Shown: one piece after another, positions 2,204-59,436 of the stretch
Layout: every line of letters begins with the position of its first letter
Numbering within the stretch: the stretch's first letter is position 1
Origin: Roseburia hominis
GTDB lineage: Bacteria > Bacillota_I > Bacilli_A > RFN20 > CAG-826
Reading direction: 5' to 3'
NCBI GenBank assembly: GCA_963642055.1
Contig: CAVIFQ010000005.1
Coordinates: forward strand, 9,633-73,632
Length of the DNA stretch: 64,000 nt
Made by a program: the position numbers and the translations under genes
The notes under the pieces: model-generated
What the model was told of the DNA's origin: nothing
The model's input: the letters and a program-made list of their open reading frames with translations, nothing else
The model's database searches: none

Positions 2204-4062
2204 CACTCTTTCTCCACGAGTTCGTAACCCTCGATGATGTCGCCTTCCTTGATGTCGTTATACCCATCGATCGAAAGGCCGCATTCATAACCTTCTTTGA
2301 CTTCTTTGACGTCGTCTTTGAAGCGCTTGAGGGAGGCTAAATCGCCTTCGTAGATTATTACGCCAGCGCGTAAGAGTCTAACTTTCTCTTTGGCCTTAAG
2401 TTCGCCTGAGGTGACATAGGATCCAGCGACGGTGCCAACATGGGTGATTTTATAGATATGTCTCACTTCGGCTTGACCGGTCACTTTCTCCACCATCTCG
2501 GCTTTATACATGCCTTTGAGAGCGGCATTCATATCATCGAGGAGTTGATAAATGATTCGATATGGCCTGATCTCGACATGCTCTTCTTTCGCTTTCTCGT
2601 TGACGCGCGCGTCAGGTCTGATATTGAAAGCGTAGATAAGCGCGTTAGAGGCACTCGCTAGAAGGACATCGCTGTCGCTGATAGCCCCAGCCGCCGCGCT
2701 GATGACGTGGATATGGACGTGCTCGTTGCTGCATTTCTCTAAGGAGGCTTTCACAGCTTCCGCGCTTCCCGCCGTATCTGCTTTAACCACGACATTGATA
2801 TCTTTGATTTTCCCGGCGTTCACGAGGTTATTGAGGTCCGACAAAGAGAGAGCTGCGCTCCCGCTTTGGGTCTGCTCTTTTTTGGCAAGCGCCCTTCTTT
2901 CGGCGATGGCTTTGGCTTCTTTCTCGGTTGGGAAAGCCATGAAGCGGTCGCCCGCGCTTGGGACGGCGCTTAAGCCGGTGACCGAGACTGGCGTGCTAGG
3001 AAGAGCAGTTCTCACGACTTGCCCGTATTCGTTGCACATCCTTCTGATTTTGCCGTATATCTCCCCCACGACGACGTAATCGCTGTTATTGAGGGTGCCG
3101 TTTTGGACAAGCAAGGTGGCTTTTGGCCCTTCGCCTTTATCGAGATTGCTCTCTAAGACGGTGCCGATCGCATAACGATTCGGGTTGGCCTTAAGTTCCA
3201 TCATCTCGGCTTTTAGGAGTATTGCATCAAGCAAATCATTGATGCCTTTCCCGGTTTTGGCGGAGAGAGGGATCATCATCGTATCGCCGCCATAATCCTC
3301 GGCGATGATGTTATGGGCCATGAGCTCTTGCTTGACCCTATCCACATTCGCGCCAGGCTTATCCATCTTGTTGATGGCCACGATTATCTCGCATCCGGCG
3401 GCTTTCGCGTGGTCGATGGCCTCCAAGGTCTGAGGCATCACTCCATCATCAGCGGCCACCACAAGCACCGTGATATCGGTGACTTGGGCGCCGCGCGCTC
3501 TCATGGCGGTGAAGGCGGCGTGCCCTGGGGTATCGATGATGGTGATTTTCTTGCCACCGTACTCTTTTTGATAAGCGCCGATCGCTTGGCTGATGCCCCC
3601 GGCTTCATGCGATGCCACATCGCTGTTTCTGATGGCATCGATAAGCGTGGTCTTGCCATGATCAACGTGCCCCATCACGGTCACGATGGAGGGGCGCTCT
3701 TCAAGATCTTTCGGGTCATCGACGATCTCGAGTTCCTCGAAGTGGTCGGCATCGACGATCTTCTCTTTCTTGAAGTCGTAGCCGTATTCCAAACATAAAG
3801 TACCTATCGTCTCATCATCGAGCAACTGGTTGATGGTGACCATCTTCCCCTGCATGAAGAGGTATTTGATGATCTGGACGCTCGGGACGTTGATGGCTTT
3901 GCTTAAATCGGCCACCGAGAGAGGTTTGGAGTAGACGAAGACCCCGCCATTGACTTTGGCGAATTCCTCTTTCTTTTTGCCCATGGGGTGCGAGGCGAAG
4001 TTTTCGATTCTCCGCTTCTGGTTGTCATTCTTTTTGGAATGGAATTGCTGCGTTTTCTTCAT
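2203..4062 (-). CDS. infB: translation initiation factor IF-2 (short N-terminal form)
   Basis: GTPase motifs [17 protein letters not shown] and NKMD, with conserved IF-2 C-terminal domains. AAAGGAGA RBS upstream. Confidence 0.95.
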
Positions 4063-4343
4063 CGTGTCTCCTTTCTTAATAATGAGGTGGCCGCTTTTTT
4101 ATCGGTTACGAGGATGAGGCTCACTTCGGGGTAGCCCAAGGCTTCCCCTAGCTCTATCTTGCTATAACGTTCGATTACGGGGATATCCTCTAGAAGATGG
4201 CTCACTTCCTTTTTGGTGTTGAGACTCGCATCGCTCGCTAGAAAGGCCAATCTCCCCTTGGAGGAATATTTGGCTTCATTCCCTATAAGAGCCTTATGGC
4301 CCTTGAAGAGGATCCCGATAAATCCGAGCGTGGAGTCATTCAT
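4059..4343 (-). CDS. ylxQ: L7Ae-family RNA-binding protein YlxQ
   Basis: 94 aa located between ylxR and infB. GFIGILFKGHKALIGNEA and the following sequence are typical of the YlxQ/L7Ae-like family. Confidence 0.8.
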   Translation of the reverse strand: MNDSTLGFIGILFKGHKALIGNEAKYSSKGRLAFLASDASLNTKKEVSHLLEDIPVIERYSKIELGEALGYPEVSLILVTDKKAATSLLRKETR

Positions 4344-13024: not shown

Positions 13025-14386
13025 TTACAAGCAGAAAGTCATGTAGACGGGAAGAGCGATCGTCCCGTCTATTTTTACGCTGAGGTTTTTCGGGTGAATG
13101 ATATAGCTAGCCATGATTCGATCCTTGAACTTGGCTTTAAAAGCATCGAGGGAGCTCGTTTTGTATGATTTCCCCGATTTGACCTCGATCGGGATGAGTT
13201 TTTTCGATACTTTGCTCCCGGAAGTCAAAAGAAAATCGATTTCGATGTCGTTCCGGTGCTTCTCGGGGGAATATTGGGTATAAAAATAGAGCTTGTAGCC
13301 ATTCGCGACGAGGGATTGAGCGACGACGTTCTCGAAAAACATGCCCTTGTTTATCGATAGTTTCCCAGATAAGAGCTCCTTGTGGTAAAGAGGGTCCGCC
13401 TTCTCGCCGTCGGAGAGAGAATGCGTCAAAAGAAGGCCGGTATCGCCCATGTAGCATTTGATGTAGTTCCTTTTCTCGTTGAGCGAGAGGCCGAAATTCG
13501 GATCGGCGCACATGAAGCATTCGTTGCAGATGAGTGAATCGGCGAGCCAAAAGAAAGTCTCTTCGTAAGCGATGGCTGTATCTTCTTCCCTGATCGATTT
13601 TATCCTGACCCTTTTCTCGTGCTGGGAGAGAAAAGAGGGCAACTGATCGAAAATGGAAAGGACTTTCGCTTTATATGAGCGATCGATTTTGCCGATATCG
13701 TCCCGATAAGCGTCCAAAATATCCCTTTTCTCACTCTCGCATGCCTCGAATTGCTTGTTGTTGGCGATGAACTCATCGACGGCTTTGGGCATCCCGCCGA
13801 CCAGCATATACTGCTTGAACAAGAACATCGCTCTTTTGTGAAGCGGGTCAAGCAATGGCTCTTTTTTGTTGAAGCAGTCCTTGATGTAGTCGGTTAATCC
13901 CTTTTCGTTCAGCGCCCAGGCGAATTCCTCGAAATCCATCGGATACATCCTGAGTTTTCTCTCTTCGGAGGGGATTAGGATATTTTTCGTGTTCTCTTTT
14001 ATCGAGATGAGAGAACCAGTCTCTATATAGTCGTAACGGCCATCTTTGACTAAATGCTTGATTGCCTCTCGCGCCCTCGGGAATGATTGGACCTCATCAA
14101 AGATAAGAAGGGATTCCCGAGGATACAAGGTTGTCTGATATTCCACCGAGAGGATCATGAAAAGGGAATCCAAGGAATCGAGCATATCGAGGAAGGCGTT
14201 TTTGATGGACGGCTTAGCCTTCGAGAAATCGATCAGGATATAGCTTCTGTAATTCTCTTTCGCAAACTGCTCAACGATGGTCGATTTGCCAATGCGCCTA
14301 GCCCCCTCTATCAAGATAGCTTTCTTCCCTTGGCACTCCTTTTTCCATTCGAGCAGTTTATCGTATACCTTTCTTTTGAAAATCAT
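13025..14386 (-). CDS. AAA_14 ATPase with DUF4143 C-terminal domain
   Basis: Walker A is GARRIGKST and Walker B-like is LLIFDEVQ. The architecture is typical of the widespread 'ATP-binding protein' family of unknown function. Confidence 0.75.
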   Translation of the reverse strand: MIFKRKVYDKLLEWKKECQGKKAILIEGARRIGKSTIVEQFAKENYRSYILIDFSKAKPSIKNAFLDMLDSLDSLFMILSVEYQTTLYPRESLLIFDEVQSFPRAREAIKHLVKDGRYDYIETGSLISIKENTKNILIPSEERKLRMYPMDFEEFAWALNEKGLTDYIKDCFNKKEPLLDPLHKRAMFLFKQYMLVGGMPKAVDEFIANNKQFEACESEKRDILDAYRDDIGKIDRSYKAKVLSIFDQLPSFLSQHEKRVRIKSIREEDTAIAYEETFFWLADSLICNECFMCADPNFGLSLNEKRNYIKCYMGDTGLLLTHSLSDGEKADPLYHKELLSGKLSINKGMFFENVVAQSLVANGYKLYFYTQYSPEKHRNDIEIDFLLTSGSKVSKKLIPIEVKSGKSYKTSSLDAFKAKFKDRIMASYIIHPKNLSVKIDGTIALPVYMTFCL

Positions 14387-14432: not shown

Positions 14433-14528
14433 AAAAGCGCAATCATCGAAAAGGCGATTTTGCCGGAAAAGCGCAATCATCGAAATGGCTATTTTGCCGG
14501 AAAAGCGCAATCACCGATATACCGATAT
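14433..14528. repeat. 34-bp tandem repeat x2.5, then CCGATAT x2
   Basis: aaaagcgcaatcatcgaaaaggcgattttgccgg is followed by aaaagcgcaatcatcgaaatggctattttgccgg and then aaaagcgcaatcaccgatataccgatat. It starts 47 nt upstream of the ATPase ATG (14386) and lies in the divergent spacer to the XRE gene. Confidence 0.9.
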
Positions 14529-15539: not shown

Positions 15540-16727
15540 TTACCTCGAGAGCCAATCGGCGATATCGATGATTCTGATGCCTTTATAGTCGTATTCCGGA
15601 TGGGAGGTTCTCGCTAAAAGGATGCGCGGATAGAGGTCTTTGATTTTTAGAAGTGGGTCCACTTCTCTCGCGAAGGTCTCTTCGCCTGATATATCATCGG
15701 AGACCTGAATGTAGATTCTCTCGTCTCTTTTTAGGGCCACGAAGTCGATTTCCTTTTTATAGAGCATCCCCACGTAGACCTCATACCCTCTTCGTAGTAA
15801 CTCAATGGCCACGATATTCTCGTAAACTCGCCCATAATCCATATTTCTGATGCCTAGAGTAGCGTATTTCAAGGAATGGTCGCAGAGATAGTATTTGTCA
15901 GAGGAGGTGAGATACTTCCTTCCCGCGAGGTCGTAACGCTTGATTTTATAGAAGAGGAAGGATTGGCATAGACTCTCAATATAGGAGCCGACGGTCTTAT
16001 CGTTCGTCTTCATCACGTTGCTACTCAAAACTTTCCTGATATTGCTGATGGAAGTAAGACTTGCGATATTATCGATCAAAAACGAAGAAATCTTCCTCAA
16101 TAGAACCTGATTCCTGATCCGTTTTCTCTTGATCAGATCCCTCTGGATGATCGTTTCATAAACCGTCGAGATATAGTCGTATTTCCTCTTTTCATTAGGA
16201 TATAGGTAGGAGCCAGGAAATCCCCCTTCATTGACGTAACGATCAAAGGAGAAGGAAGAAGGGGTAAGCTCATGGTAATTCATGAATTCCTTGTAGGAAA
16301 AAGGGAAAACCTTTATCTCGATCGCTCTACCCGTGAAAAGGGTCGCGAGGTCGCTGCTCAATAAAAACGCGTTTGAGCCCGTGAGGTATATATCGTAATT
16401 GCCCGTGGAGTGAAGGCTATTTATCGCCTTCTCGAAGTTCTCGCATAGCTCAACTTCGTCGATGAGCAGGAAATTCTCGCTCCCCTCTTTGTATCGCGAG
16501 ACGATGTATTCATATAATTTGTGGTAATCCTGCAGCTCCTCAAATTCGATTTTGTTGAAATCGATGCAGATGAGATTCGCATCTTGACGATTCTTCACGA
16601 GATACTCGAAAAACGATTCCATGAGAATCGATTTCCCTGAGCGTCGGACGCCCGTGATGACTTTGATATCCGGCGTCCCCATGAGTTCGATTAGTTCATT
16701 CAAATAAGGCCTTTCGATTATTTTCAT
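15540..16727 (-). CDS. AAA_14 ATPase with DUF4143 C-terminal domain (second paralog)
   Basis: Walker A is GVRRSGKS and Walker B-like is FLLIDEVE. Start set at the second ATG (8 nt after GGAGG); the track ORF starts 2 codons earlier. Confidence 0.75.
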   Translation of the reverse strand: MKIIERPYLNELIELMGTPDIKVITGVRRSGKSILMESFFEYLVKNRQDANLICIDFNKIEFEELQDYHKLYEYIVSRYKEGSENFLLIDEVELCENFEKAINSLHSTGNYDIYLTGSNAFLLSSDLATLFTGRAIEIKVFPFSYKEFMNYHELTPSSFSFDRYVNEGGFPGSYLYPNEKRKYDYISTVYETIIQRDLIKRKRIRNQVLLRKISSFLIDNIASLTSISNIRKVLSSNVMKTNDKTVGSYIESLCQSFLFYKIKRYDLAGRKYLTSSDKYYLCDHSLKYATLGIRNMDYGRVYENIVAIELLRRGYEVYVGMLYKKEIDFVALKRDERIYIQVSDDISGEETFAREVDPLLKIKDLYPRILLARTSHPEYDYKGIRIIDIADWLSR

Positions 16728-16767
16728 CCTCATATCCTCCTTTTTTCCTTAGAAGAGCGAATCAGCA

Positions 16768-16920
16768 TTCATTTTCTTGAACTATTTTTGATGTTTTATT
16801 TCACGATTTCAATAATTTTTCATTTTCTTGAAGTTTGTTCACTACTTTATTTCAATATTTTGAATATTTTTCATTTTATTGAAGTTTATAAAGCGTTTTA
16901 CTTCAAAAAAATGAATGTTT
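16768..16920. repeat. 51-bp tandem repeat x3 built around TTCATTTTCTTGAA
   Basis: TTCATTTT(C/A)TTGAA occurs at 16768, 16819 and 16870, giving an exact 51-bp period. An inverted partial copy, cttcaaaaaaatgaa, lies at ~16901. The array starts 41 nt upstream of the ATPase ATG. Confidence 0.85.
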
Positions 16921-17013
16921 TTTGCCTCTTGAGACGGGCCTTCAAGGTCGTAAGGCTGACTACTGCCGTCTCAAATCTTGCACGCAAGGAAATGCCGAAT
17001 GAACGTCAGGCAA

Positions 17014-35675: not shown

Positions 35676-37103
35676 TCATTTGACGAGGTATTTTCTGCCA
35701 CTCGTTGGAAGATTGTTCGATTCGATGAATCCTCCCTCCTGGAGCTCTTTGATGATATTGTTCACGTAGGTCCTCGAAAAACCCAGATGGTCCTGGATGT
35801 CCTTTGGCCTAACGCCAGCTTTCCCTTTGGAGGCGATGTATTCAAGGGCCTTTCGCTTATTCACGGAGAGCTCATCTCCCTCTTTTTCCTTTTTCTTTAG
35901 ATAGATAATGAAGGAGGTTTCCTCTGGATGGGCTTGTTCAGTTAGTAAGGGCGTAGGCAAAGAAAGAGTTTCGGCGGAAGAGAAGAGGTTCGGTATCCCC
36001 GTGCCCGCTTTATCGGAAATGCCCAAAAGCCGGAAAAAGGTGTGTATTTGGGCATTCCTTGGCCCGCTTTTCCCGCCTTTTAAGGCTTGCTTCAATCCGA
36101 CCTTAACTCGCCCAGCGTTTCTTTCGATGAGCTTATCCCCCGTCAAAAGAATGGTTAACCCGCCATATAGCAAAACGGCATAATTGCTTAAGGCATTCAC
36201 GAGGAGCTCCCGCAAAATCGCTTGGCCTTTCAAAGCGCCGATATCCTGGTCTTTTGAGGCTATATAGGGCTTAGGCATAAAAGGCTCCGCCCTTTGATAC
36301 ACCAAAGAATAGAAATCGAACATATTCCCTGACCAGCCCATATCATCGGCGACGATGCGGTAATTCCATTTATCCTCGAAGGAAGAGGCTTCCCGATAAT
36401 CGAGAAGATAATCCTGAAAGACGGAGACGATCTTGAAGTAGTTGCTAAACATAAGGAGAGCCCCATTCGTCAAGACAGGTTCACCGTTACTATTTTTGGC
36501 GAAAGCGCCGATGGCATTAAGGAAATCCTTGTCGCTCAACGATGAATAATAGCTTCTAGGATGAACAATTTCGTATTTCTCCCTGAAAGAGTGAAGAGTC
36601 TCTATGTTCACGTCCTCGAAACCGTAATTCATCTTATTGGGGAGATAGTCGTAATTCTCGGTGGAATTATCGATGAGCATGGAGCGTATCTCATTCACCT
36701 CGGCCTTATGATCCCCTTCCCCTACTCTGATATAGGAATCAGCGAGATTGGAATTCAGAAAGACGGGCTTTTCGTTCCTTGGGGCTTCGTGAATATCAAC
36801 TTTGATTATTTGCTTGCCCTCTATTTCGATAACCTCGATATTCGATTCATTGATGAGAGGAAGAGAGACCTTCGTCTTGTTTCTCGATGTAGCGAGAATC
36901 GCATCGATCATCTGTTTAGGATTCTTTACGCCGATAACCTCATTCCCGTTTGTTACCTCCTTGATTCCTAGATAAATGGTTCCTCCTTCCGTATTCGCGA
37001 AAGAAGAATATGTATCCCAAAAAGAAAGAGGGAGCCCGTGCTCCGCCCCTTTAAGCTCAAGGGTTTCGCTTTCTTTCAGTTCACTTATATCTCTTAGTGT
37101 CAT
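35676..37103 (-). CDS. AlbA_2 (Schlafen-like) + HATPase_c_4-like + C-terminal wHTH protein (putative DNA-binding ATPase/regulator)
   Basis: N-terminus is ESETLELKGAEHGLP...SSFANTEGGTIYLGI. The middle contains LRELLVNALSN. The C-terminus is ALEYIASKGKAGVRPKDIQDHLGFSRTYVNNIIKELQEGGFI. Confidence 0.75.
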   Translation of the reverse strand: MTLRDISELKESETLELKGAEHGLPLSFWDTYSSFANTEGGTIYLGIKEVTNGNEVIGVKNPKQMIDAILATSRNKTKVSLPLINESNIEVIEIEGKQIIKVDIHEAPRNEKPVFLNSNLADSYIRVGEGDHKAEVNEIRSMLIDNSTENYDYLPNKMNYGFEDVNIETLHSFREKYEIVHPRSYYSSLSDKDFLNAIGAFAKNSNGEPVLTNGALLMFSNYFKIVSVFQDYLLDYREASSFEDKWNYRIVADDMGWSGNMFDFYSLVYQRAEPFMPKPYIASKDQDIGALKGQAILRELLVNALSNYAVLLYGGLTILLTGDKLIERNAGRVKVGLKQALKGGKSGPRNAQIHTFFRLLGISDKAGTGIPNLFSSAETLSLPTPLLTEQAHPEETSFIIYLKKKEKEGDELSVNKRKALEYIASKGKAGVRPKDIQDHLGFSRTYVNNIIKELQEGGFIESNNLPTSGRKYLVK

Positions 37104-37122
37104 AGGCTTTATCTCTTAAACA

Positions 37123-37230
37123 AACTATACAACTAAATTCGCAAACTATACAACTTTTCTTTAAAACTATACAACTAAACTTTGCAACTATACAACTAAA
37201 CTTGTCAACTATACAACCAAACTATAAAAC
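37123..37230 (-). repeat. 21-bp tandem repeat x5 (plus 1 degenerate) with core AACTATACAAC (GTTGTATAGTT on the coding strand)
   Basis: Cores at 37123, 37144, 37165, 37186 and 37207 give an exact 21-bp period; a degenerate copy lies at 37220. On the gene strand each core contains TGTATAGT, an extended -10-like octamer. The first core is 20 nt upstream of the ATG. Confidence 0.9.
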
Positions 37231-37479: not shown

Positions 37480-38790
37480 CTATTTGTAGCTAATAGAGGA
37501 AGTTGAGCCGTAATAGGTCTTGCTCGTATCCCAATCTTGGTCATTGAGCTTGACACTGACGCTCGCTCCGTTTTTGCCGGTCGTCCCCCATTGATTAGTG
37601 GCTTCCGCCACCATGAGGTAATCGGAAGAGGAGGCTTGAGTGAAGCTGTTATCGCTTAAGGTAACGACGGCCGTGATATTGGTGAGATAGAACATCGGGA
37701 CATCGCTCGTGGTGACTATAAAAGAGCAGGAGGTGGCGTAGAAATAGTCGGTGCCTTCGCTTGAATCGCCAGAGAAGGACTGATAGATGAAGATGCCACC
37801 GCGATCGATGACGTGAGTCGAGGAAGAAGAATCGCTTGTGCCGCTTCTATTGCCATCCCCTGAGCAAGAGAATGAGCAATCAGTGAGCGTCGCGCTTGAC
37901 CCGCCCTCCACCACGACCATCTGGGCTTTATTGGCGGTGCCAGAGGAAGAAGAGACGGTGATGGAATCGGTGCTATAAATAAGAGGAGAGCCATTCGAAT
38001 TGGTCTCGAGTTCCATATTGCTTGCGACGATACTGCCTCCACCCCTATCATTGGCGAGAGCCGCGCAAGAAGCGCCTTGTGTGGTTATCTTGACATTATT
38101 CGCCGTGATATCGCCGCCATAAGTGGTATGTAATCCCCTTGAGCCCGCGGAACCGCTGGTGCTGATCGAAGAAGAGGAAATCGTGATTTGACCATCATTT
38201 GTAGCCACAACAGCATTGGAGCCATTGCTCGAAGTTACGATATCCGCGTATTCGATCGTCGCTGAGGAGGCAGAGCCCGAAACCACGATTCCCGAGTTGA
38301 TGCCGTAGAAATTGTAATCATCGGACACTTGGCCGTTGCTCGCCGCGCTGCCGCTTTTATTCACGCTGACGTAGTTATCGCTGCTGCCTTTGATAGAGAG
38401 AGTGCCGCCATTGACGACGAGGAAGACAACTTGGTTAGAAGAAGAAGAGGCACTTATGTATTCCCCAGAGGTGATTTCGACTTTCACCCCATCGATAAGA
38501 TAGGCAGCTGAGATCGTCTTCGTGGTCGTTTGTCTCCCGTAGACGAATGAGAGGGAGGCACTGCCGCTTTTTATCTCATTGCCCGATGTGTCATAGAGTT
38601 TATCGGAGGTAGTACTCGCTGAATTTGAGGTGCCTGAAGAAGTGCTGGTAGATGAGCTGCCTTTAGATGACGAGCTACTCTCAGTTGATGAAGAAGCGGT
38701 GTTGCCACTGCTGCTACCTATATTCGCTGAGCAAGAGGCGCAGAGCAGCGTAACCGCGAGAGCTGGAATCAATAATCTGGATTTTTTCAT
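37480..38790 (-). CDS. surface lipoprotein, Ser/Gly/Thr-rich with parallel-beta-helix-like repeats; function unknown
   Basis: Lipobox LLCASCS and a poly-S/T linker. Repetitive blocks such as GGDITANNVKITTQGASCAALANDRGGGSIVASNMELETNS suggest a beta-helix fold. Confidence 0.55.
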   Translation of the reverse strand: MKKSRLLIPALAVTLLCASCSANIGSSSGNTASSSTESSSSSKGSSSTSTSSGTSNSASTTSDKLYDTSGNEIKSGSASLSFVYGRQTTTKTISAAYLIDGVKVEITSGEYISASSSSNQVVFLVVNGGTLSIKGSSDNYVSVNKSGSAASNGQVSDDYNFYGINSGIVVSGSASSATIEYADIVTSSNGSNAVVATNDGQITISSSSISTSGSAGSRGLHTTYGGDITANNVKITTQGASCAALANDRGGGSIVASNMELETNSNGSPLIYSTDSITVSSSSGTANKAQMVVVEGGSSATLTDCSFSCSGDGNRSGTSDSSSSTHVIDRGGIFIYQSFSGDSSEGTDYFYATSCSFIVTTSDVPMFYLTNITAVVTLSDNSFTQASSSDYLMVAEATNQWGTTGKNGASVSVKLNDQDWDTSKTYYGSTSSISYK

Positions 38791-39045: not shown

Positions 39046-39201
39046 TTTTAAGATTCTGATAAAGCATTGACGACGTTATTGGCATTCAATCGACGACATT
39101 TCTCGTCAAAAAATGAATCAAGCCTGTGTTTTTTATAACCGTGAGAAAAACGAACGATTATCAAAATGTTTCAGTAGAGAATCTTCAGCAAAAGTTAATA
39201 A

Positions 39202-40608
39202 TCAACGCGAAATTCGCCAATATCCTCTTGTGCCACCGATTCTTTCAATGATCTTTTTGTCTTTCAAAGAGTCGAGCGCTCGTTGAATGGTTCTAGCCGA
39301 TCTGCCAGATTTCTCAGTGATTTCGTATTTAGTAATGCGCGGATTATCCTCTATTTCTTGAAGGATTATCTTTTCAAATTCGGACAACGAATCGGTGGCA
39401 TCGTTAGCGACATCATTGGTGATGTCATTGGCGACATCATTACTGGCGCCATCATCGACATCATTGGTGACATCGATAACGTCATTGGTGCCATTGTTGG
39501 TATTGTTGCGATAAAAAACAAACCAAAATCCATCGATTTCTTTTTCGTAACCGACCTTGACATTGCTCTTCTTACAATATGAATAAGTCTTCGAAAAGCC
39601 AGTGCCCCACTTCTCGATGGCTTTGCATCTAAATAAGACATCGCAAATCAATTCGTTTCTGACCTTGGAAGAGATGGCTTTGTTCACGAAATCCTCGGGG
39701 TTATAGCCATCGGGAAAAGCGCCTGGGTTATAAATTGCGATTCTATTTGGAAATATATCGATTTCGTTCTTGCTCCACCCTACGTAATTGGCGTGAGCAA
39801 AAGAATTGACGATGATCTCCCTTAAAGCGTCGAGCGGCACTTCAGGCACGTCAGTCCTATCGAAGCCCTTGATTTGGACGCTCCAGTGTATGTTCTTTTT
39901 GATGTATTTCTCAGATTCTTCGATCAAGCTGAAAATATTTCCTTTAATAGGCGATATATCGATAAATGTCCTCTTTTCATTGGTGGCGAAAACCGCCATT
40001 TTAAGCTCAATCGGCCCTTTATTCGAAAACAAGAAGCGGCCAGCGTTATTCAAATGGAATTTATCGGCCGCTAGTAAACCAAGTTGCTCAAGAAGAGCGG
40101 GCTTATCGTATTTCATGGTCCCGATTCTTCCGCATGAAATGGCTTTATCGAAGAATTTGGCCAATTGGTCTTCGTCAACATCATCGATGGTGTCTTCCGA
40201 TTTTTGCTTTTCCCAGGATTTATAATTCACTTCAATGATCATTCTGGTGAGCTCATCGGGAGTCATTTCCCTGCTTTCGTCAGAAACGCGGACATAGTAT
40301 CTCCCGAAAGCGGAATACGGCCTTTCGTTTCCTTCGAAGGTGACTTTGATGATTCTTGAATCAGGAACTTCTTCTATGACGGGGAAAATCTGTGGCTTGA
40401 GCTTTTCGAATATTCTTCTGGAGATATCTCTTTGGGTATCTTGGCCAATGTCGAAACCGATGGCATCGCCGTTATTTTTAACGCCAAAATACAAAATGCC
40501 GCGCCCATGCTTATTGAGAATGGCTGCTATATCGATGATTGAGTCATCGAGCTCATTCGTCGTTTCTTTGAATTCCAGTAATTCCGATTCTTTTCCAAGG
40601 TTCATCAT
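39202..40608 (-). CDS. AlbA_2 + HATPase_c_4-like + C-terminal wHTH protein (second paralog) with an (N-D-V/I-x)n linker
   Basis: N-terminus is ESELLEFKETTNELDD...GRGILYFGV. The middle is LREIIVNSFAHANY...IAIYNPGAF. The linker is NDVIDVTNDVDDGASNDVANDITNDVANDATDS. The C-terminus is a wHTH (ITEKSGRSARTIQRALDSLKDKKII). Confidence 0.75.
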   Translation of the reverse strand: MMNLGKESELLEFKETTNELDDSIIDIAAILNKHGRGILYFGVKNNGDAIGFDIGQDTQRDISRRIFEKLKPQIFPVIEEVPDSRIIKVTFEGNERPYSAFGRYYVRVSDESREMTPDELTRMIIEVNYKSWEKQKSEDTIDDVDEDQLAKFFDKAISCGRIGTMKYDKPALLEQLGLLAADKFHLNNAGRFLFSNKGPIELKMAVFATNEKRTFIDISPIKGNIFSLIEESEKYIKKNIHWSVQIKGFDRTDVPEVPLDALREIIVNSFAHANYVGWSKNEIDIFPNRIAIYNPGAFPDGYNPEDFVNKAISSKVRNELICDVLFRCKAIEKWGTGFSKTYSYCKKSNVKVGYEKEIDGFWFVFYRNNTNNGTNDVIDVTNDVDDGASNDVANDITNDVANDATDSLSEFEKIILQEIEDNPRITKYEITEKSGRSARTIQRALDSLKDKKIIERIGGTRGYWRISR

Positions 40609-40637
40609 GTTGCTTTACCCGCTCATATTATAGCAAG

Positions 40638-40781
40638 TGGCACAAATTTGGCACTAATAATGGCACTAATGGCACTAATGTGGCACCAATTTGGCACAAA
40701 TTTGGCACTAATAACACCAATTTGGCACTAATCGTGGCACTAATGTGGCACTAATGGCACTAATCATGGCATCAATGGCAC
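40638..40781 (-). repeat. array of 13 TGGCA(C/T) hexamers plus 1 degenerate copy, mean spacing 10.6 bp (TTAGTGCCA on the gene strand)
   Basis: Hexamer starts are 40638, 40649, 40661, 40670, 40681, 40692, 40703, (40713), 40723, 40735, 40746, 40755, 40767 and 40776. The array starts 30 nt upstream of the ATG and overlaps the -35 position of a TGCTATAAT promoter (-10 at 40627-40632). Confidence 0.9.
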
Positions 40782-40878
40782 AAATACCTTTTCGGCCATT
40801 TGTCATATCGGAAGATAGTTCCCTCATATCCCGATATCAAAAAAAGCCTGACCATTTGATCAAGCCTTTAAATTCTAT

Positions 40879-40952
40879 TGGTGCCCCGCCGCAGAGTCGA
40901 ACTACGGATTGGTCCTTACCATGGACCCGTTATACCGTTTAACTAGCGGGGC
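40879..40952 (-). tRNA. tRNA-Thr (anticodon GGU), CCA encoded
   Basis: Hand-folded cloverleaf. Acceptor is GCCCCGC/GCGGGGC. D arm is GTTA-AACGGTA-TAAC. Anticodon arm is GGTCC-AUGGUAA-GGACC. T arm is CGTAG-TTCGACT-CTGCG, then ACCA. Confidence 0.85.
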
Positions 40953-40982
40953 GTCTCTCTCGCAGATTTCGCTGCGAGAGTG

Positions 40983-41011
40983 ATTATAGGTTAGTGATAT
41001 CCCCCTTGCAA
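40983..41011 (-). promoter_or_regulatory. consensus-like sigma-70 promoter driving tRNA-Thr
   Basis: On the minus strand: TTGCAA, a 17-nt spacer, then TATAAT, ~30 nt upstream of the tRNA 5' end. Confidence 0.55.
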
Positions 41012-41029
41012 GAAGGAATGAAGCATTCC

Positions 41030-42331
41030 TCACTCCTTTTTCGCGAGAAACTCCCCATATAAATCGTAAGTGGAGCTAGAGATAATCTTCACAGAAGCGA
41101 TATCCCCTTCTTTTAAGGGCGTATCGCTCGTAAAGAAGATATTGCCATCGATCTCATCCGGGGCGTTCCAGTAGCTGCGGAGCGAGTAACGCTTTCTCTC
41201 ATTATCATACCCTGTGACGATGCCTTCCATGCTCTCGCCGATGTGCCTCTCGTTATGCTCCTTGGAGATAGAGGCGGCAAGGGCCATGACTTCCTTTTGC
41301 CTGCGCTTTTTGGTGCTATAAGGGACTTGGTCCTTATAGGAATAAGCGGCGGTCCCTTCTTCCCGGGAATAGGTAAAATCGCCTAGATGGTCAAAGCCGA
41401 CCTCTTTGATGAAGGAAAGAGTGGCTTTATGGTCTTCCTCATTCTCCCCTGGGAAGCCGCTGATCAAAGTGGTGCGGAGCACCGCTTTCGGCATGAGCTC
41501 CTTGATGCGCTTAAATAGAGCAAGCATTGAAGCGACATCCCCATGCCTATTCATTAATTTAAGAAGATGATCGCTCGCGCATTGGATCGGCACATCGAAA
41601 TACGGGGCAATCGATTTTGAGGAAGCGATGAAGAGGAGCTCCTCTTCCGTTATTTCCTCAGGGTAAAGATAAAGGAGTCTAATCGAATAGAAGCCCAAAG
41701 AATCGAGCATCTTGAGCAAGTCCAGCATATCGGGCTTCTTGTTTACAAAGTCGCACCCATAATGCATCGGATCCTGGGAGATGATGCTGATTTCCTTGAT
41801 TCCTTCACTTTTCAGTTTCTTCGCTTCTTCTTCGATTTCTTCAAAGGGGCGAGAGAGATATCTTCCTCTTATATAAGGTATCGCGCAGAAAGAGCACATA
41901 TTGTTGCACCCCTCGCTGATCCTTAAATAGGCTGAATAAGAGCCTGTTGAGACCACCCGATGGAGCGGAGAGATAGGCAAAATGTCTTTCGTCCCAAGCA
42001 TCTCTCCGATTATCTCATGGAGATGCGGGTAATCGCTTATCCTCGCCCACTTGTCCACTTCGGGGAGTGCTTTCTTTAGCTCTTCGTAGTTTCTTTCCAC
42101 GAAGCACCCGGAAGCGAGGAGCTTCCCTTTATAGGCGCTCATCTCGAGGATTTTGTCGATCGCCTCTTTCTTTGCATCGGCGATGAAACCGCACGTATTG
42201 ACGATGATTAAATCGGCTTCCGCGGGATTGTTCGTTATTTGATAATCCCCATCGCGAAACATCGCGAGCATCATCTCGCTGTCGACGAGGTTCTTGCTGC
42301 ATCCTAAAGATACGATTCCGATTTTCTTCAT
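41030..42331 (-). CDS. rimO: ribosomal protein S12 methylthiotransferase RimO
   Basis: N-terminus is IGIVSLGCSKNLVDSEMM. Radical-SAM motif is CNNMCSFCAIP. C-terminal TRAM domain present. Its ATG overlaps the malQ stop (ATGA). Confidence 0.85.
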   Translation of the reverse strand: MKKIGIVSLGCSKNLVDSEMMLAMFRDGDYQITNNPAEADLIIVNTCGFIADAKKEAIDKILEMSAYKGKLLASGCFVERNYEELKKALPEVDKWARISDYPHLHEIIGEMLGTKDILPISPLHRVVSTGSYSAYLRISEGCNNMCSFCAIPYIRGRYLSRPFEEIEEEAKKLKSEGIKEISIISQDPMHYGCDFVNKKPDMLDLLKMLDSLGFYSIRLLYLYPEEITEEELLFIASSKSIAPYFDVPIQCASDHLLKLMNRHGDVASMLALFKRIKELMPKAVLRTTLISGFPGENEEDHKATLSFIKEVGFDHLGDFTYSREEGTAAYSYKDQVPYSTKKRRQKEVMALAASISKEHNERHIGESMEGIVTGYDNERKRYSLRSYWNAPDEIDGNIFFTSDTPLKEGDIASVKIISSSTYDLYGEFLAKKE

Positions 42332-43797
42332 AGACGCTTGTATTTGCTTAAAAGGGTCCTTAATTCCGGGATCCTCTTCTCGAATTCGTCGAAGGAGGTG
42401 ATTCTATAGGTCCAATTGACATCATCGATGACGCTTGGCACGTTGATTCGAGCCTCACTCCCCTCTTTTAAGACATCTTGGAGCGAGATAAGGGCGTAAG
42501 AGGCGGGCAAAGAGAGCTCGTATTCGATCATCTTGTCGACGATATCGCCCTCTTTGAAGCCGAGCTCCTCGAGCTTAGCTAGCCAGCTCTTCTGCTCTTC
42601 TTCCTTCAAAGAGAGGAAGTAGCCTTTCATGGTGTCATTATCGTGGGTCCCTAAATAAGCGACGAGATGCTCTTTCTTCCACTGCTCATTATGATTGAAC
42701 TCAGCATCGAAGAAAGTGAACTCGACGACGTTCATGCCGGGGAAATTATAATGGTCGCGGAGCGTCAATACCTCTGGGCGGAGATCGCCTAAATCCTCGG
42801 CGATGATATCCACATTCGGCACCTTTTTCCATAAAGTGTCGAAGAATTCATACCCTGGCGCCTCTATCCAAGCCCCGTCAATGGCGGTCGGACAAGAAGA
42901 AGGAATCTTCCAATAGGTATCGAAAGCCCTAAAGTGATCAAGACGCAAAATATCGTAAAGAGAGGCATTCAGCTTGATGCGGTTAATGAGAAAACTGTAA
43001 TGCTCGTCTTTGAAGCGCTCCCAGTTATAGATAGGATTGCCCCATCTTTGCCCAGTCGGCGAGAAATAATCCGGCGGGACGCCCGCGATCCAGGCGGGTT
43101 TTTTATCGGCGTCTAGTAGGAACTCATTCTGCGCCTCATAGACATCGCACGAATCGTAACCCACGTAGAAAGGAAGATCGCCGATGATGCGTATGCCTTT
43201 CTTATTCGCGTAGTCCTTCAGCTTCAGCCACTGCTCATAAAGCGTTTTCTGGAGCCAAATCTCGTAATCGGCGGCCTCTTTCTCGCTTTTATTGAGCCCT
43301 TCGTATCCGCCTTTTATTTTCTCTTGCTTCTCCTTGGGCCAGTTGTCCCAGCTAGCGAGCCTCTCGCTCCGCTTTAACGACATAAAAACCGACCAATTCT
43401 TCACCCAAGGGTGGGTGGAGATAAAGCCTTCAAGGCATTTTGGGTCTTTTTCTACGGCCTTATGGAAAGCCTTATAGAGATATGGGGTTTTATAGACCCT
43501 GATATCCTCGTAGTGTACCTTATCCATCTTCTCGTTATAGGAAGTGAGATTATCGATGAGGCCGTCTTGCTCTAGAGCTAGCAAATCGATATAGAGCTCA
43601 TCGAGAGCAAAGGAGGAAAACGGCTGATACGGGGAATGGCCATAACCAAGCGGATTAAGCGGCAAAATCTGCCACAAGGAGAATCCGCCCTTATATAGCA
43701 AATCGACGAAACGGTAGGAGTTCTCCCCAAAATCGCCGATCCCAAAGCGCGAAGGAAGCGCGCTTATTGGGCACAGAATGCCAGAGCTTCTTTTCAT
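42328..43797 (-). CDS. malQ: 4-alpha-glucanotransferase (amylomaltase, GH77)
   Basis: RSSGILCPISALPSRFGIGDFG at the N-terminus, 489 aa, with GH77 blocks (DHFRAF, GTHDND). Confidence 0.9.
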   Translation of the reverse strand: MKRSSGILCPISALPSRFGIGDFGENSYRFVDLLYKGGFSLWQILPLNPLGYGHSPYQPFSSFALDELYIDLLALEQDGLIDNLTSYNEKMDKVHYEDIRVYKTPYLYKAFHKAVEKDPKCLEGFISTHPWVKNWSVFMSLKRSERLASWDNWPKEKQEKIKGGYEGLNKSEKEAADYEIWLQKTLYEQWLKLKDYANKKGIRIIGDLPFYVGYDSCDVYEAQNEFLLDADKKPAWIAGVPPDYFSPTGQRWGNPIYNWERFKDEHYSFLINRIKLNASLYDILRLDHFRAFDTYWKIPSSCPTAIDGAWIEAPGYEFFDTLWKKVPNVDIIAEDLGDLRPEVLTLRDHYNFPGMNVVEFTFFDAEFNHNEQWKKEHLVAYLGTHDNDTMKGYFLSLKEEEQKSWLAKLEELGFKEGDIVDKMIEYELSLPASYALISLQDVLKEGSEARINVPSVIDDVNWTYRITSFDEFEKRIPELRTLLSKYKRL

Positions 43798-49284: not shown

Positions 49285-49377
49285 CAAAATACAAATTTTC
49301 CATGTTTTTAAAGGCTCCCAAATACAAGTTTTTCATGTTTTTGGAGGCCTCCAAATACAAGTTTTTCATGTTTTTGG
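49285..49377. repeat. 33-bp tandem repeat x3 (CCAAATACAAGTTTTTCATGTTTTTGG)
   Basis: Units start at 49285 (diverged), 49318 and 49351. Each has CCAAA...TTTGG terminal dyads. The array is an orphan in the 564-bp spacer between the cls start and the SDR gene 3' end. Confidence 0.85.
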
Positions 49378-56199: not shown

Positions 56200-58803
56200 T
56201 CACAAACTGGCCTTTATCTCATCGACGATAGAAGAGAAGCCGTTGCTACTTTTAACTTGGCCTGTTGCCATTTCGGGTCTTCCTCCGCCACCGCCGCCGA
56301 GCGCTTTGGCGAATTTCTTCACGATATCGCCGGCTTTGGCTTTCTTTAAGGTCTCTCCGCCGATCATGACGACGAGCGGACGTGCCCCTTCTTTACCTCC
56401 TAAAAGGATCAAGAAGTAGTCTTTGTCTTTGCTCTTGATGGTATCGGAGAGAGTCAAGAGATCGTCTTTGCTCGCCCCTTCCTTCACCAAAGAGAGGAAG
56501 CGGATACCGTTAATGAGAGGAGAGGAAGCCACGTCTTTTGCTTCAAGAGCAGCTATTTTGCCTTTCAAAGCCACATTGTCGCGGGATAGAGCCTTCTTCT
56601 CTTCGCTCTCTTTCTTTAAACGAGAGAGGAAAGAGGCTTCATTGACATCGTATACCTTCAAAGCTTCCGCGAGAATATCGGCCTTTTTCCTGAAATAGGA
56701 GATGGCTCCTAAAGAGGTATAGGCTTCGATGCGGCGGATGCCACTTGAGATGGCTTCATCACTTGCGATCACGAATAAGCCGATTTCGCTCGTGTTCTTT
56801 ACGTGGGTCCCGCCGCAGAATTCCTTGCTGTAGTCAGAGAAAGTGACAACGCGGACGGTCTTTCCGTACTTATCGGCGAACTCCATCTCGGCGCCGAGTT
56901 TTTGGGCCTCTTCGATAGGCAAGATCAAGGTCTTTTCCTCGATTCCTATCTCGATATAGTGATTCACCTCATCTTCGATTTTCTTGATCTCCTCTTCGCT
57001 GAGCTTTCTATCGGCATCGTAATCGAAGCGGAGATAATCCTTATCGACATAGGAGCCTTTTTGCTCGACGTGACGAAGCAAGACGTTAGAGAGAGCGCTG
57101 TGAAGGAGGTGGGTGGCGCTGTGATTGCGCTCGATGAGGCGGCGCGCCTCTTTATCGATGGACAAAAGCAATTCATCGCCTTCTTTTATCGTCCCAAAAC
57201 GAGCCTTCACGTGATGGAGATGTTGCCCGTTCGGGGCCTTTTTGACGGAGATAACAGAGAAAGAGGCATCGGAACTCGAGACGATTCCAGTATCACTCAC
57301 TTGTCCGCCCATCTCGGCGTAGAAAGGCGTCTCATCGAAGATGATATCGCCTTCTTCTTCGATGCTATCGACTCTCACCCCGTCGACGAATAAGCCGATG
57401 GCTTTCGCCTTGAGTTCATCTTTGTCGTAACGGAATTCGCTTGGGGTTTTGAAATCCAATAAATCCTTGGACTGCTTATGGAAGGAATCGATTTCCCCAC
57501 GCGCCGCGCGGGCTCTTTCTCTTTGCTCTTCCATCGCTTTCGCAAAACCGTCTTTGTCACATTTCACGCCATATTCCTCGGCGATTTCATAAGTGAGGTC
57601 GCTCGGGAAGCCATAGGTATCGTAAAGCTTGAAGATTTCTTCGCCCGTGAGTTCTTTCTTCTCTTCGATCATCTCTTTGAGGAGAGCTTCACCGCTTGAA
57701 AGCGTGCGGAGGAATTTGCTCTCTTCGCTTTTGATCATCTTGGCTACTTCTTCTTGCTTATCGAGCAGATATGGATAGAAGTCTTTGTATTTGCTCACTA
57801 CCGCTTCCACCATCTTGTACATGAATTCGCCTTCAATGCCGAGCTTTCTCCCGTATCGCATGGCTCTTCTTATGATGCGGCGAAGAACATACCCTCTCCC
57901 TTCATTCGAGAAAGAGGCGCCGTCGCTGAGCGCGAAGGTGAGACAACGCGAATGATCGGCGATCACACGGAAAGCCATGAGATTGTCGCCTTCGTATTTC
58001 TTGCCGGACAAAGCGGCGATTTTCTCGATGAGCGGCGCGAATAAATCGGTCTCGAAATTGGTTTTCGCCCCTTGAAGGATACAAGCGATTCTCTCTAATC
58101 CTGAGCCCGTATCGATGTTTTTGCTTGGAAGCTCTTTATATTCGCTTCTTGGAATGGAGGGGTCGCAGTTATATTGACTGAAGACGATGTTCCAGATTTC
58201 GATGTAACGGTCATTATCGATGTCGTCGGCGATGAGTTTGGTTCCTAAACCCTCAGGATCGTATTCTTCGCCACGGTCGAAGAACATCTCGGTGTCTGGT
58301 CCGCCTGGGCCTTTGCCGATTTCCCAGAAATTGCTCGCCATCGGGATGAGGTGGTCTTCTTTCATTCCACATTTCACCCACAGTGAAAAGGTCGCTTTAT
58401 CGTGCGGTTCATAGGTGATATAGAGCTTGTCTTTATCAATTCCAAAACCAGTTTCTTCATTCGTGAGGATCTCGTAAGCCCAGGGAATGACCTCATCGCG
58501 GAAATAATCGCCGATCGAGAAATTGCCGAGCATCTCGAAGAAAGTATGGTGACGCGCCGTGTGGCCAACATTCTCGATATCATTGGTGCGGAGGGATTTC
58601 TGCACGTTCACGATGCGGCGGGATGGCGGCACTTCGCTCCCGTCGAAATACTTCTTTAGGCCCGTGACTCCGGCATTGACCCACAAAAGCGATTTGTCCT
58701 CTTTCGAAGGCACCAAAGAGACGCCTGGGATGTATTTATGCCCTTTGCTCTCGAAGAAAGAGATCCATCTCTCCCTGATTTCTTGACCAGTCAGCGCTTT
58801 CAT
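56200..58803 (-). CDS. alaS: alanine--tRNA ligase
   Basis: 867 aa. N-terminus is LTGQEIRERWISFFESKGH and class II motifs are present. The editing-domain zinc motif has HSATHLLH near the start and C..GGTH at CGGTHV. C-terminal DHHA1 domain present. Confidence 0.95.
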   Translation of the reverse strand: MKALTGQEIRERWISFFESKGHKYIPGVSLVPSKEDKSLLWVNAGVTGLKKYFDGSEVPPSRRIVNVQKSLRTNDIENVGHTARHHTFFEMLGNFSIGDYFRDEVIPWAYEILTNEETGFGIDKDKLYITYEPHDKATFSLWVKCGMKEDHLIPMASNFWEIGKGPGGPDTEMFFDRGEEYDPEGLGTKLIADDIDNDRYIEIWNIVFSQYNCDPSIPRSEYKELPSKNIDTGSGLERIACILQGAKTNFETDLFAPLIEKIAALSGKKYEGDNLMAFRVIADHSRCLTFALSDGASFSNEGRGYVLRRIIRRAMRYGRKLGIEGEFMYKMVEAVVSKYKDFYPYLLDKQEEVAKMIKSEESKFLRTLSSGEALLKEMIEEKKELTGEEIFKLYDTYGFPSDLTYEIAEEYGVKCDKDGFAKAMEEQRERARAARGEIDSFHKQSKDLLDFKTPSEFRYDKDELKAKAIGLFVDGVRVDSIEEEGDIIFDETPFYAEMGGQVSDTGIVSSSDASFSVISVKKAPNGQHLHHVKARFGTIKEGDELLLSIDKEARRLIERNHSATHLLHSALSNVLLRHVEQKGSYVDKDYLRFDYDADRKLSEEEIKKIEDEVNHYIEIGIEEKTLILPIEEAQKLGAEMEFADKYGKTVRVVTFSDYSKEFCGGTHVKNTSEIGLFVIASDEAISSGIRRIEAYTSLGAISYFRKKADILAEALKVYDVNEASFLSRLKKESEEKKALSRDNVALKGKIAALEAKDVASSPLINGIRFLSLVKEGASKDDLLTLSDTIKSKDKDYFLILLGGKEGARPLVVMIGGETLKKAKAGDIVKKFAKALGGGGGGRPEMATGQVKSSNGFSSIVDEIKASL

Positions 58804-59113: not shown

Positions 59114-59276
59114 CGGGGATATCAGTTATTTGTGCTTGATGGAAATGATAATGGAGAGAGTTCAATCCCTTCTTCCATCTTCTTTAAATGCAATTTGCAC
59201 AGTGTCCATGGGAAAGTTAGGATTTATCGATATTTTTGATCAGATGACTGATGATTTTATACAAATTTCTATTCTA

Positions 59277-59436
59277 TTCGTAAAATGTTATTCGATACGC
59301 ATTACGATTTCGTAAAATGCGATTCATTACACAATACGTATTCGTAAAATGTAATCCATTACACATTACGATTTCGTAAAATGTGATTTGATGCACATTA
59401 CGTGTTCGTAAAATGTGATTTTTGACATGTTACGAA
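59277..59436. repeat. 32-bp tandem repeat x5, each unit an imperfect dyad TTCGTAAAATG-N~12-ACATTACGA
   Basis: TTCGTAAAATG occurs at 59277, 59309, 59341, 59373 and 59405, an exact 32-bp period. The array is an orphan in a ~700-bp ORF-free spacer (59114-59811). Confidence 0.9.

Follow-up and report, generated by a model that had tools for sequence, protein, structure and literature searches.

What is a run of 14 near-identical hexamers doing immediately in front of a gene for a prokaryotic Schlafen-type protein? The question is raised by a 64,000-nucleotide stretch of a Roseburia hominis assembly (GCA_963642055.1, contig CAVIFQ010000005.1, positions 9,633 to 73,632), hereafter the window, in which the array lies just upstream of a minus-strand gene whose product combines SLFN_AlbA_2 and HATPase_c_4 domains with a linker and a C-terminal winged helix-turn-helix (wHTH). 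From the sequence we give a probability of roughly 0.6 to the reading that the repeats together form a multi-site operator for the protein encoded downstream, whose wHTH would bind them head to tail and thereby exert negative autoregulation. A second, inverted set of related units was found in frame within the DNA coding for the linker. An earlier note on this DNA had described the promoter array; it overlooked the antisense mirror in the linker DNA, as well as the relation of the 14 copies to a family element of two to six copies, of which they are an expansion.

Twelve exact copies of TGGCAC were located on the plus strand (at 40638, 40649, 40661, 40670, 40681, 40692, 40703, 40723, 40735, 40746, 40755, and 40776), together with two variants in the same orientation, TGGCAT at 40767 and a degenerate AACACC at 40713. 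The count given in the earlier note (13 copies of TGGCA(C/T) and one degenerate copy, all in one orientation) was re-found by listing positions, and its spacing series with a mean of 10.6 bp was reproduced exactly (11, 12, 9, 11, 11, 11, 10, 10, 12, 11, 9, 12, and 9 bp; mean 10.62). On both strands of the window, TGGCAC occurs at 36 sites against 12.2 ± 3.3 expected, a number reached in none of 100 shuffles, and 12 of the 36 are concentrated within the 145 bp of the array. When the 10-mer TGGCACTAAT was searched with at most one mismatch, 14 sites were found where 2.3 were expected, 12 of them within the array; of the other two, one lies on the other strand, within the linker-coding segment of the gene, and one at 22340. 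With this single near-match beyond the array and the linker site, the idea of a regulon within the window was rejected. The copies are well phased on the helix (resultant length 0.87 for a turn of 10.5 bp and 0.93 for one of 10.65 bp). When the spacings were permuted, their order departed weakly from random (p 0.02–0.13), so that the phasing follows mainly from the mean spacing. The identical array is present in an independent assembly (Logan contig L001, SRR13434599), which possibly comes from the same sample as the window. As a separate observation, 24 copies of TGGCAC lie outside the array (about 12 were expected for the whole window, with a shuffle maximum of 22); they are mostly on the minus strand, where the majority of the window's genes have their coding sequence, and a codon-usage effect is therefore their likely cause.

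At its promoter end the array reads, on the gene strand, GTGCCA-AATTT-GTGCCA-CTTGC-TATAAT. The last core stops 5 nucleotides (nt) short of the -10 element and the second-last occupies the -35 position, which bears out the earlier placement of the -10 at 40627–40632 with the second copy where the -35 should be. Read as a promoter, GTGCCA and TATAAT separated by 16 nt, with TG before the -10, match the consensus at 10 of 12 positions. The repeats extend over the -35 and into the spacer of the promoter that serves the gene, and their position is conserved in homologs, as would be expected of an autoregulatory operator. On the other side, the terminator of a tRNA-Thr gene insulates the array from read-through, so that the array is not predicted to be transcribed, and since it sits between this terminator and the -10, pairing of a 5' leader with the linker mRNA is unlikely. 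An RNA element was also considered and rejected, as an Rfam search of the region gave only the tRNA.

The protein carries SLFN_AlbA_2 (PF04326) at residues 7–116 (E 1.5e-17), HATPase_c_4 (PF13749) at residues 282–350 (E 4.3e-16), and HTH_24 at residues 410–455 (E 1e-6), the last within a wHTH spanning approximately residues 407–468. The domain layout leaves a linker of about residues 369–406, and the same residues are predicted to be disordered in an AlphaFold2 model (predicted local distance difference test, pLDDT, below 50). That model is poor overall (pLDDT 58), with the wHTH folded at residues 410–468 (pLDDT ~80). A Foldseek search with this low-confidence model matched 3lmm, the N-domains of SLFN12 and SLFN5, the tRNase domain of SAMD9, and generic wHTH domains, and given the pLDDT of 58 we used only the matches to 3lmm, the Schlafens, and the generic wHTH domains. 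The sole solved relative by sequence is the uncharacterised DIP2311 (3lmm). Residues E7, E9, E12, E19, and D26 are invariant in our alignment (A1), and by alignment reading E7-x4-E12 resembles the E-x4-E/D pair. The protein is a candidate for phage defence and probably a toxic effector of the tRNase type, and some of its relatives adjoin AbiEii, Fic, or AAA_14/DUF4143 genes.

By its domains the protein belongs to the "pSlfn-HisKinase-HTH" class of prokaryotic Schlafens, with the same order of SLFN_AlbA_2, HATPase_c_4, and HTH as is given for that class in the main text of PMC13056530 (2026). According to that text, Schlafen-HisKinase-HTH fusions make up 19.2% of 5,930 prokaryotic Schlafens; other Schlafen fusions were shown to be phage-triggered tRNases, and the HisKinase-HTH class was left outside the assays (PMC13056530). 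Word searches of the same main text gave no passage on the cis-regulatory DNA of this class. In the literature searched, no description was found of the promoter arrays, of an antisense in-frame mirror in the linker, or of the regulation of this architecture.

Arrays of this kind are a trait of the family. A set of 54 non-redundant homolog loci (given L numbers here) was surveyed, an array being scored where a 7-mer occurred at least three times in the 150 nt upstream, and 1,377 windows from the same loci served as controls. Arrays were scored at 41% of the 54 loci and in 86% of the orthologs with at least 50% identity, against 3.2% of the control windows. The cores of the family are GTGACA, which is found in most relatives, GTGCCA, ACGACA, or GGGACA, with lineage-specific flanks. 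Relatives show a period of 11–12 bp and two to six copies, and the 14 copies of the window are the largest array seen. The ortholog with 91% identity (L002), which has the same tRNA-Thr, carries one GTGCCA, then four TTGGTGACA units (spacings 9, 12, 9, and 12), then TTTGCTACAAT. In an ortholog at 75% identity, five GGTGACA units are followed by TGCTAAAAT and, over the start region, by a sixth unit; at 74% there are three units, then TCTATAAT, and orthologs at 79% and 73% have four and three units, respectively. Elements of the TGnTAnAAT type, that is, putative extended -10 sequences, follow the ortholog arrays.

Within this variation, the distance to the promoter is held. The last core lies 5 nt before the -10 in 13 loci (the window, L002, L003, L005, L009, L010, L013, L043, L068, L069, L071, L076, and L077) and 3 nt before it in two further loci of the window's subfamily. 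An additional copy lies just downstream of the -10 in L003, L069, and L071, and in one subgroup palindromes of the form AAGTGACA-n4/5-TGTCACTT flank the -10; both arrangements are typical of repressors. In other classes the last core serves as the -35, with a 17-nt spacer, in L029, L031, L035, and L040, and abuts a consensus TTGACA in L019 and L023. Identical proteins from different samples have identical arrays (L005/L006/L007 and L003/L004/L008, from three samples each, and the window/L001), so in this small sampling the arrays are not hypervariable, and no copy-number polymorphism among closely related samples, the mark of a phase-variable contingency repeat, was found. The recognition region of the wHTH, RTIQRxLDSL, is conserved where the core is GTGACA-like, and L040, whose motif is ACACCCAAA, has a different one, KTPQAVTYNL. 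The promoter array is absent from L070 and L078 (80% identity), in which a frameshift just before the linker detaches the wHTH. With the frame shifted, the linker repeat of L078 (1501–2697) and of L070 is translated as (MSP)n in place of (NVT)n; the protein is cut short, and the coding sequence of the wHTH goes on out of frame.

The motif is not restricted to the promoter. Between HATPase_c_4 and the wHTH, the linker is encoded by in-frame tandem repeats, and in 26 of the 54 loci these repeats, read in reverse complement, give the unit found at that locus's promoter. In the window, the plus strand, which is antisense to the gene, carries TTGGTGACATCA-like units there (tandem repeat at 39394–39474 by Tandem Repeats Finder); read antisense to the gene, they are mostly of the GGTGACA or GCGACA type, close to the promoter unit of the orthologs, and the window's own promoter variant TTGGTGCCA occurs among them at 39484–39493. 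A 39-nt stretch of this linker array matches the promoter array of L002, taken in reverse complement, at 87% identity. At L009, the promoter has four copies of ATTGGTGACA and the antisense strand of the linker has ttggtgacatcattggtgacattggtgacatcattggtgaca, encoding NVTNDVTNVTNDVTN; at L014, five promoter copies of TTTCTTGTGACA are mirrored by catttcttgtgacatttgtagtgaca in the antisense strand of the linker.

The position of the mirror was evaluated by taking the longest exact match between the 150-nt promoter and the antisense strand of the coding sequence. This match fell at 0.78–0.87 of the coding sequence, a segment making up 9% of its length, in 26 of the 54 loci (binomial p ~1e-13, a value that overstates independence because the loci are related by descent), including one, in L029, that is simply an A/T string. 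Self matches of at least 12 nt occurred in 28% of loci; the figure was 11% for the forward orientation, and among cross-locus pairs it fell to 3.6%. A second motif set within the transcription unit (39391–39507 in the window), as at these 26 loci, is the layout expected of an auxiliary operator. A promoter running antisense in the linker was considered and rejected, as its -10-like TATAAA comes from conserved F-Y-R codons and its spacing to the last core is inconsistent (7, 14, and 18 nt).

The linker peptide differs with the motif class: ACGACA loci encode NVV or NSV, GGGACA loci NVP, and CAGTGCC loci GTV, with NVT in a further class, DLGV in the ACACCCAAA locus L040, and VTYD or VTL in the palindromic class. 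In loci chosen solely for having at least two GTGACA in the promoter, the valine of the linker "VT" is encoded by GTC in 26 of 27 cases, compared with 26% elsewhere in the same genes, and in 25 of 27 the codon before it has T at its third position. It follows from this codon bias that the conserved thing is the DNA and not the peptide. Eleven antisense GTGCCA units lie at 3619–3781 of L012, in a much expanded linker of the form (NGTQ)n. The 520-amino-acid open reading frame (ORF) that contains them begins directly at the stop codon of the ORF before it and therefore appears operonic. Seven homologs of 35–39% identity (L051, L054, L055, L057, L059, L061, and L062, from Omnitrophota, Elusimicrobia, and others) have three to five in-frame 12-nt tandem repeats directly before the wHTH, at 0.82–0.87 of the coding sequence, encoding GLVE, GVNE, EGLS, EKSS, TQKT, or KVGE; no matching sequence was found within 2.5 kb on either side of them.

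The following mechanism is proposed. Each unit of 9–12 bp would offer one asymmetric core (GTGCCA here, GTGACA in most relatives) to one C-terminal wHTH, and many molecules would be bound head to tail on roughly one face of the DNA. The two promoter-proximal copies would lie at about -23 to -18 and -34 to -29 of the extended -10 promoter, and because they lie over the promoter, their occupancy should exclude RNA polymerase, resulting in negative autoregulation of a probably toxic, tRNase-type effector. The inverted linker array, approximately 1.15 kb downstream, may serve as an auxiliary operator, a role that we consider possible but on balance doubtful: dimers or oligomers would bridge the two arrays and fold the DNA back into a loop, or, alternatively, the bound linker array would block elongation. 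The inverted orientation is as a two-fold symmetric fold-back loop zipped by dimers would need it, by analogy with iteron handcuffing. In its strongest form, which we think unlikely, the proposal describes a widespread class of "self-addressed" Schlafens, where the antisense strand of the linker DNA would be an array of wHTH sites matched to the promoter array, and the loop, closed by stacked dimers, would both silence the gene and store inactive, DNA-bound nuclease until its release or activation on infection. If so, the linker peptide would be a mere by-product of a cis-regulatory code written in the reading frame.

It is unusual for a putative regulatory array to lie antisense, and in frame, in the DNA that encodes part of its presumed regulator. 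The class gains a predicted DNA motif for each protein and a predicted autoregulatory promoter layout. If confirmed, the arrays would explain how a potentially toxic tRNase is restrained, would provide natural orthogonal wHTH/operator pairs with a tunable number of sites, and would be a clear case of selection on DNA dictating the sequence of a low-complexity linker. In practice, cloning such a gene with only 100–150 bp of native upstream DNA, or codon-optimising it, would alter or remove part of the control.

Comparison of the window (39159–42400) with L002 adds a historical element. Nucleotide identity is 92.8% in the upstream flank (a RimO/MiaB-like gene and the tRNA), approximately 97% from the -10 to the linker, and 80% in the wHTH, and no homology was found further downstream of the wHTH. 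Codons 1–367 differ by 5 amino-acid and 22 synonymous changes, and the 63 wHTH codons by 15 and 12, respectively. Since synonymous divergence is also raised in the wHTH, the pattern is that of a recombination mosaic rather than of positive selection, with breakpoints coinciding with the promoter and linker arrays. Co-evolution of wHTH and operator between the window and L002 was rejected for the same reason, and because the A/C position of the core varies without a change in the recognition helix. As a separate observation, the homolog in L042 is broken at about residue 340, before the linker (~3520–4100), where the inserted ORF looks, from its translation, Rpn/PD-(D/E)XK-type and transposase-like, and the L048 contig ends at the same point of the gene.

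Several observations weigh against the operator reading, besides the shared descent of the loci. That the wHTH reads the array is inferred from sequence. In L019, L023, and L026, the array lies upstream of a consensus -35, a position equally compatible with activation. The A/C position of the core toggles while the recognition helix stays the same (L020 versus L024, and the mixed arrays of L002 and L015), so that GTGCCA in the window and GTGACA in L002 need not reflect co-evolution. Promoter arrays occur without a linker mirror in L003, L005, L015–L017, and L076, and L012 has a large linker array and no promoter array; the two arrays can thus exist separately. In homologs of less than 40% identity the linker repeats are present, but no promoter copies were detected within 2.5 kb. 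The co-variation of promoter and linker could also come in part from gene conversion between inverted repeats. Apart from these points, the copy numbers of the two arrays were compared across loci, and their correlation is weak (rho 0.26, not significant).

Much of this anatomy would also suit an activator array like the pho box, in which tandem wHTH domains recruit RNA polymerase to a promoter without a good -35 and autoregulation is positive. The repeats are direct, have a period of 11–12 bp, and take the place of the -35 in an extended -10 promoter. In L019, L023, L026, L029, L031, and L035, the end of the array falls on the -35 or directly upstream of it, and the core GTGACA equals TTGACA at 5 of 6 positions. 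However, the last copy in the subfamily to which the window belongs is placed within the spacer at 5 nt from the -10, where it would occlude polymerase, and the copy over the transcription start in L003, L069, and L071 and the palindromes bracketing the -10 are likewise in occluding positions. Extended -10 promoters of the TGn type should, moreover, work without an activator, and we consider positive autoregulation rather improbable. Effects intrinsic to the DNA, needing no dedicated protein, would be curvature, which the earlier note had offered, UP-element-like stimulation, or a slippage-prone contingency repeat. The mean period of 10.6 bp, the A/T-rich spacers, and the strong differences in copy number among close orthologs (14, 5, 5+1, 4, and 3) are as such effects would have them, but what is conserved is the G/C core and not the A/T spacer, and identical proteins have identical arrays across three samples. 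Curvature in particular is disfavoured: the periods of 11–12 bp drift off one face of the helix (many relatives keep a strict 12 bp, which rotates by ~50 degrees per copy), one subgroup is palindromic, and curvature cannot account for motif-matched antisense copies in the linker. An explanation from the DNA alone is therefore, in our judgement, very improbable.

The inverted arrangement itself suggests recombination sites, by which the promoter and the Schlafen-ATPase module would be inverted, or switched as a cassette, relative to the wHTH module. Inverted repeats of 10–22 nt do bracket the promoter and residues 1–368, the breakpoints of the window/L002 mosaic fall at the arrays (97% identity between them, with flanks of 92.8% and 80%), and the L048 contig breaks off, and L042 is interrupted, directly ahead of the linker. 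Yet in none of ~70 loci is the N-terminal module on the opposite strand to the wHTH, no recombinase gene was found among the neighbours of the locus in the window, and such a switch would leave unexplained why the array keeps a constant distance to the -10, so that we give this possibility very little credence. Least probable of all, in our view, is a non-functional relic, the upstream array having arisen as a partial, inverted duplicate of the linker repeat and the linker being kept only as a flexible low-complexity peptide. Such linkers are common, and the 12-nt linker repeats are family-wide, distant homologs without promoter copies included; nevertheless, the register to the -10 is the same across protein identities from 40% to 91%, the linker peptide varies between motif classes while the DNA tracks the promoter unit, and the use of GTC in 26 of 27 cases points to identity at the DNA level.

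Taken as an autoregulatory operator, the array may be placed beside known systems; by analogy, the closest in function would be looping autorepressors with an intragenic auxiliary operator, and the closest in geometry winged-helix iterons and PhoB-type repeats. In the lac and gal systems, an auxiliary operator lies in the transcribed region (O2 in lacZ as partner of O1, and OI in galE as partner of OE) and repression involves DNA looping. The present locus is similar in that the primary sites lie over the promoter, the same motif recurs downstream in coding DNA, and an oligomeric regulator could bridge the two. It differs in that the sites are tandem arrays (of 14 and ~9 units), inverted, and in frame antisense in the regulator's own linker, and in that the presumed regulator forms one protein with a Schlafen nuclease/ATPase body; a loop is here a proposal. 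The pho box of OmpR/PhoB-type regulators consists of 7-bp direct repeats with an 11-bp period that replace the -35. The head-to-tail wHTH geometry, the period of 11–12 bp, and the -35 position are shared, whereas the Schlafen-type protein has no receiver domain, the copies are many more, and they extend into the spacer or over the -10, which suggests repression. Among wHTH autoregulators of toxic defence modules, such as the AbiEi antitoxin and the BrxR/CapW type, one or two inverted repeats are bound, usually by a separate protein. Here too a wHTH would control the promoter of a potentially toxic defence gene, but this wHTH forms the C-terminal end of the effector, and its putative sites make up long arrays of direct repeats with an intragenic mirror.

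Iteron arrays are read by winged-helix Rep proteins (RepA of pPS10, pi of R6K, and RepE of F), with handcuffing and autorepression. Helically phased direct repeats next to a gene for a winged-helix protein, the presumed reader, recall them, and handcuffing is the nearest precedent for a bridge between the two arrays; the resemblance is one of mechanism only, as the period is ~10.6 bp here and not ~22 bp. Of the view taken in the earlier note, that a private array serves the cooperative binding of many copies of a protein, the general part has gained from the recurrence in homologs, the fixed register to the -10, and the paralog-specific motifs, and the specific analogies have failed. For iterons, there is no Rep domain, origin feature, or plasmid context, and the period is 10.6 bp; for ParB-like spreading, there are no ParB domains, and the repeats are direct and asymmetric, not palindromic 16-bp parS sites; for a DnaA-box cluster, the unit ATTAGTGCCA has, on reading the sequence, no match to 9-mers of the TTATCCACA type. 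The array therefore lies outside these three families, whose defining proteins and motifs are absent.

Each Schlafen paralog keeps its own private motif. In the window, a second paralog (35676–37103, minus strand, 475 amino acids; AlbA_2, HATPase_c_4, and a MarR-like wHTH) has six AACTATACAAC units at 37121–37223, with a period of 21 or ~10.5 bp, beginning 18 nt from the start codon, and the second paralog of L005 has its own motif, GTGGACATGTT. Two AAA_14/DUF4143 ATPase genes of the window (13025–14386 and 15540–16733, both minus) also have private tandem arrays, 35–50 nt upstream of the start codon, at 14433–14517 (34 bp, 2.5 copies) and 16768–16922 (51 bp, 2.4–3 copies); genes of this family also neighbour Schlafen homologs in L003 and L077. 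An antisense mirror in the coding sequence was absent from the second window paralog, from the second paralogs of L005 and L049, and from the two AAA_14/DUF4143 genes, all of which do carry arrays or repeats upstream.

Table 1. Coordinates, in the window, of the Schlafen-type gene, its putative control elements, and the adjoining tRNA gene
Feature	Position	Strand	Remarks
Prokaryotic Schlafen-type gene, 468 amino acids	39202..40608	-	SLFN_AlbA_2, HATPase_c_4, disordered linker, C-terminal winged HTH
Winged HTH coding region, presumed array reader	39205..39390	-	Inferred from sequence
Intragenic inverted array	39391..39507	+	~9 in-frame 12-nt units encoding linker NDVT/NDVA/NGTN
Extended -10 TGCTATAAT	40627..40635	-	TATAAT 40632->40627, TG 40635-40634
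Promoter operator array (putative)	40638..40785	-	14 head-to-tail units, ATTAGTGCCA-like on the gene strand, core GTGCCA, mean period 10.6 bp
Intrinsic terminator of the upstream tRNA-Thr gene	40842..40869	-	
tRNA-Thr(GGT)	40879..40952	-	Upstream edge of the intergenic region; syntenic in the 91% ortholog L002

The locus is chromosomal and flanked by housekeeping genes (a RimO/MiaB-like gene with UPF0004, radical SAM, and TRAM domains and, further off, alanyl-tRNA synthetase), and the housekeeping flank of the syntenic ortholog includes a Glyco_hydro_77 gene. A scan of viral contigs for a phage origin gave no relatives. Between the two Schlafen paralogs of the window lies a Ser/Thr-rich ORF of 436 amino acids (37480–38790, minus). 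Its N-terminus resembles that of a lipoprotein (LLCASCS), and neither Pfam nor PADLOC gave a match; the syntenic position in L002 holds a different ORF of 590 amino acids. Two further repeats were seen elsewhere in the window. A 33-bp tandem repeat of 2.8 copies (49287–49377) has a short-chain dehydrogenase gene on one side and a PLD-type (cardiolipin synthase-like) gene on the other, and a 32-bp unit (TTCGTAAAATGTGATTCAATACACATTACGAT) is repeated 4.5 times at 59275–59420, approximately 470 nt upstream of the alanyl-tRNA synthetase gene (56200–58803, minus).

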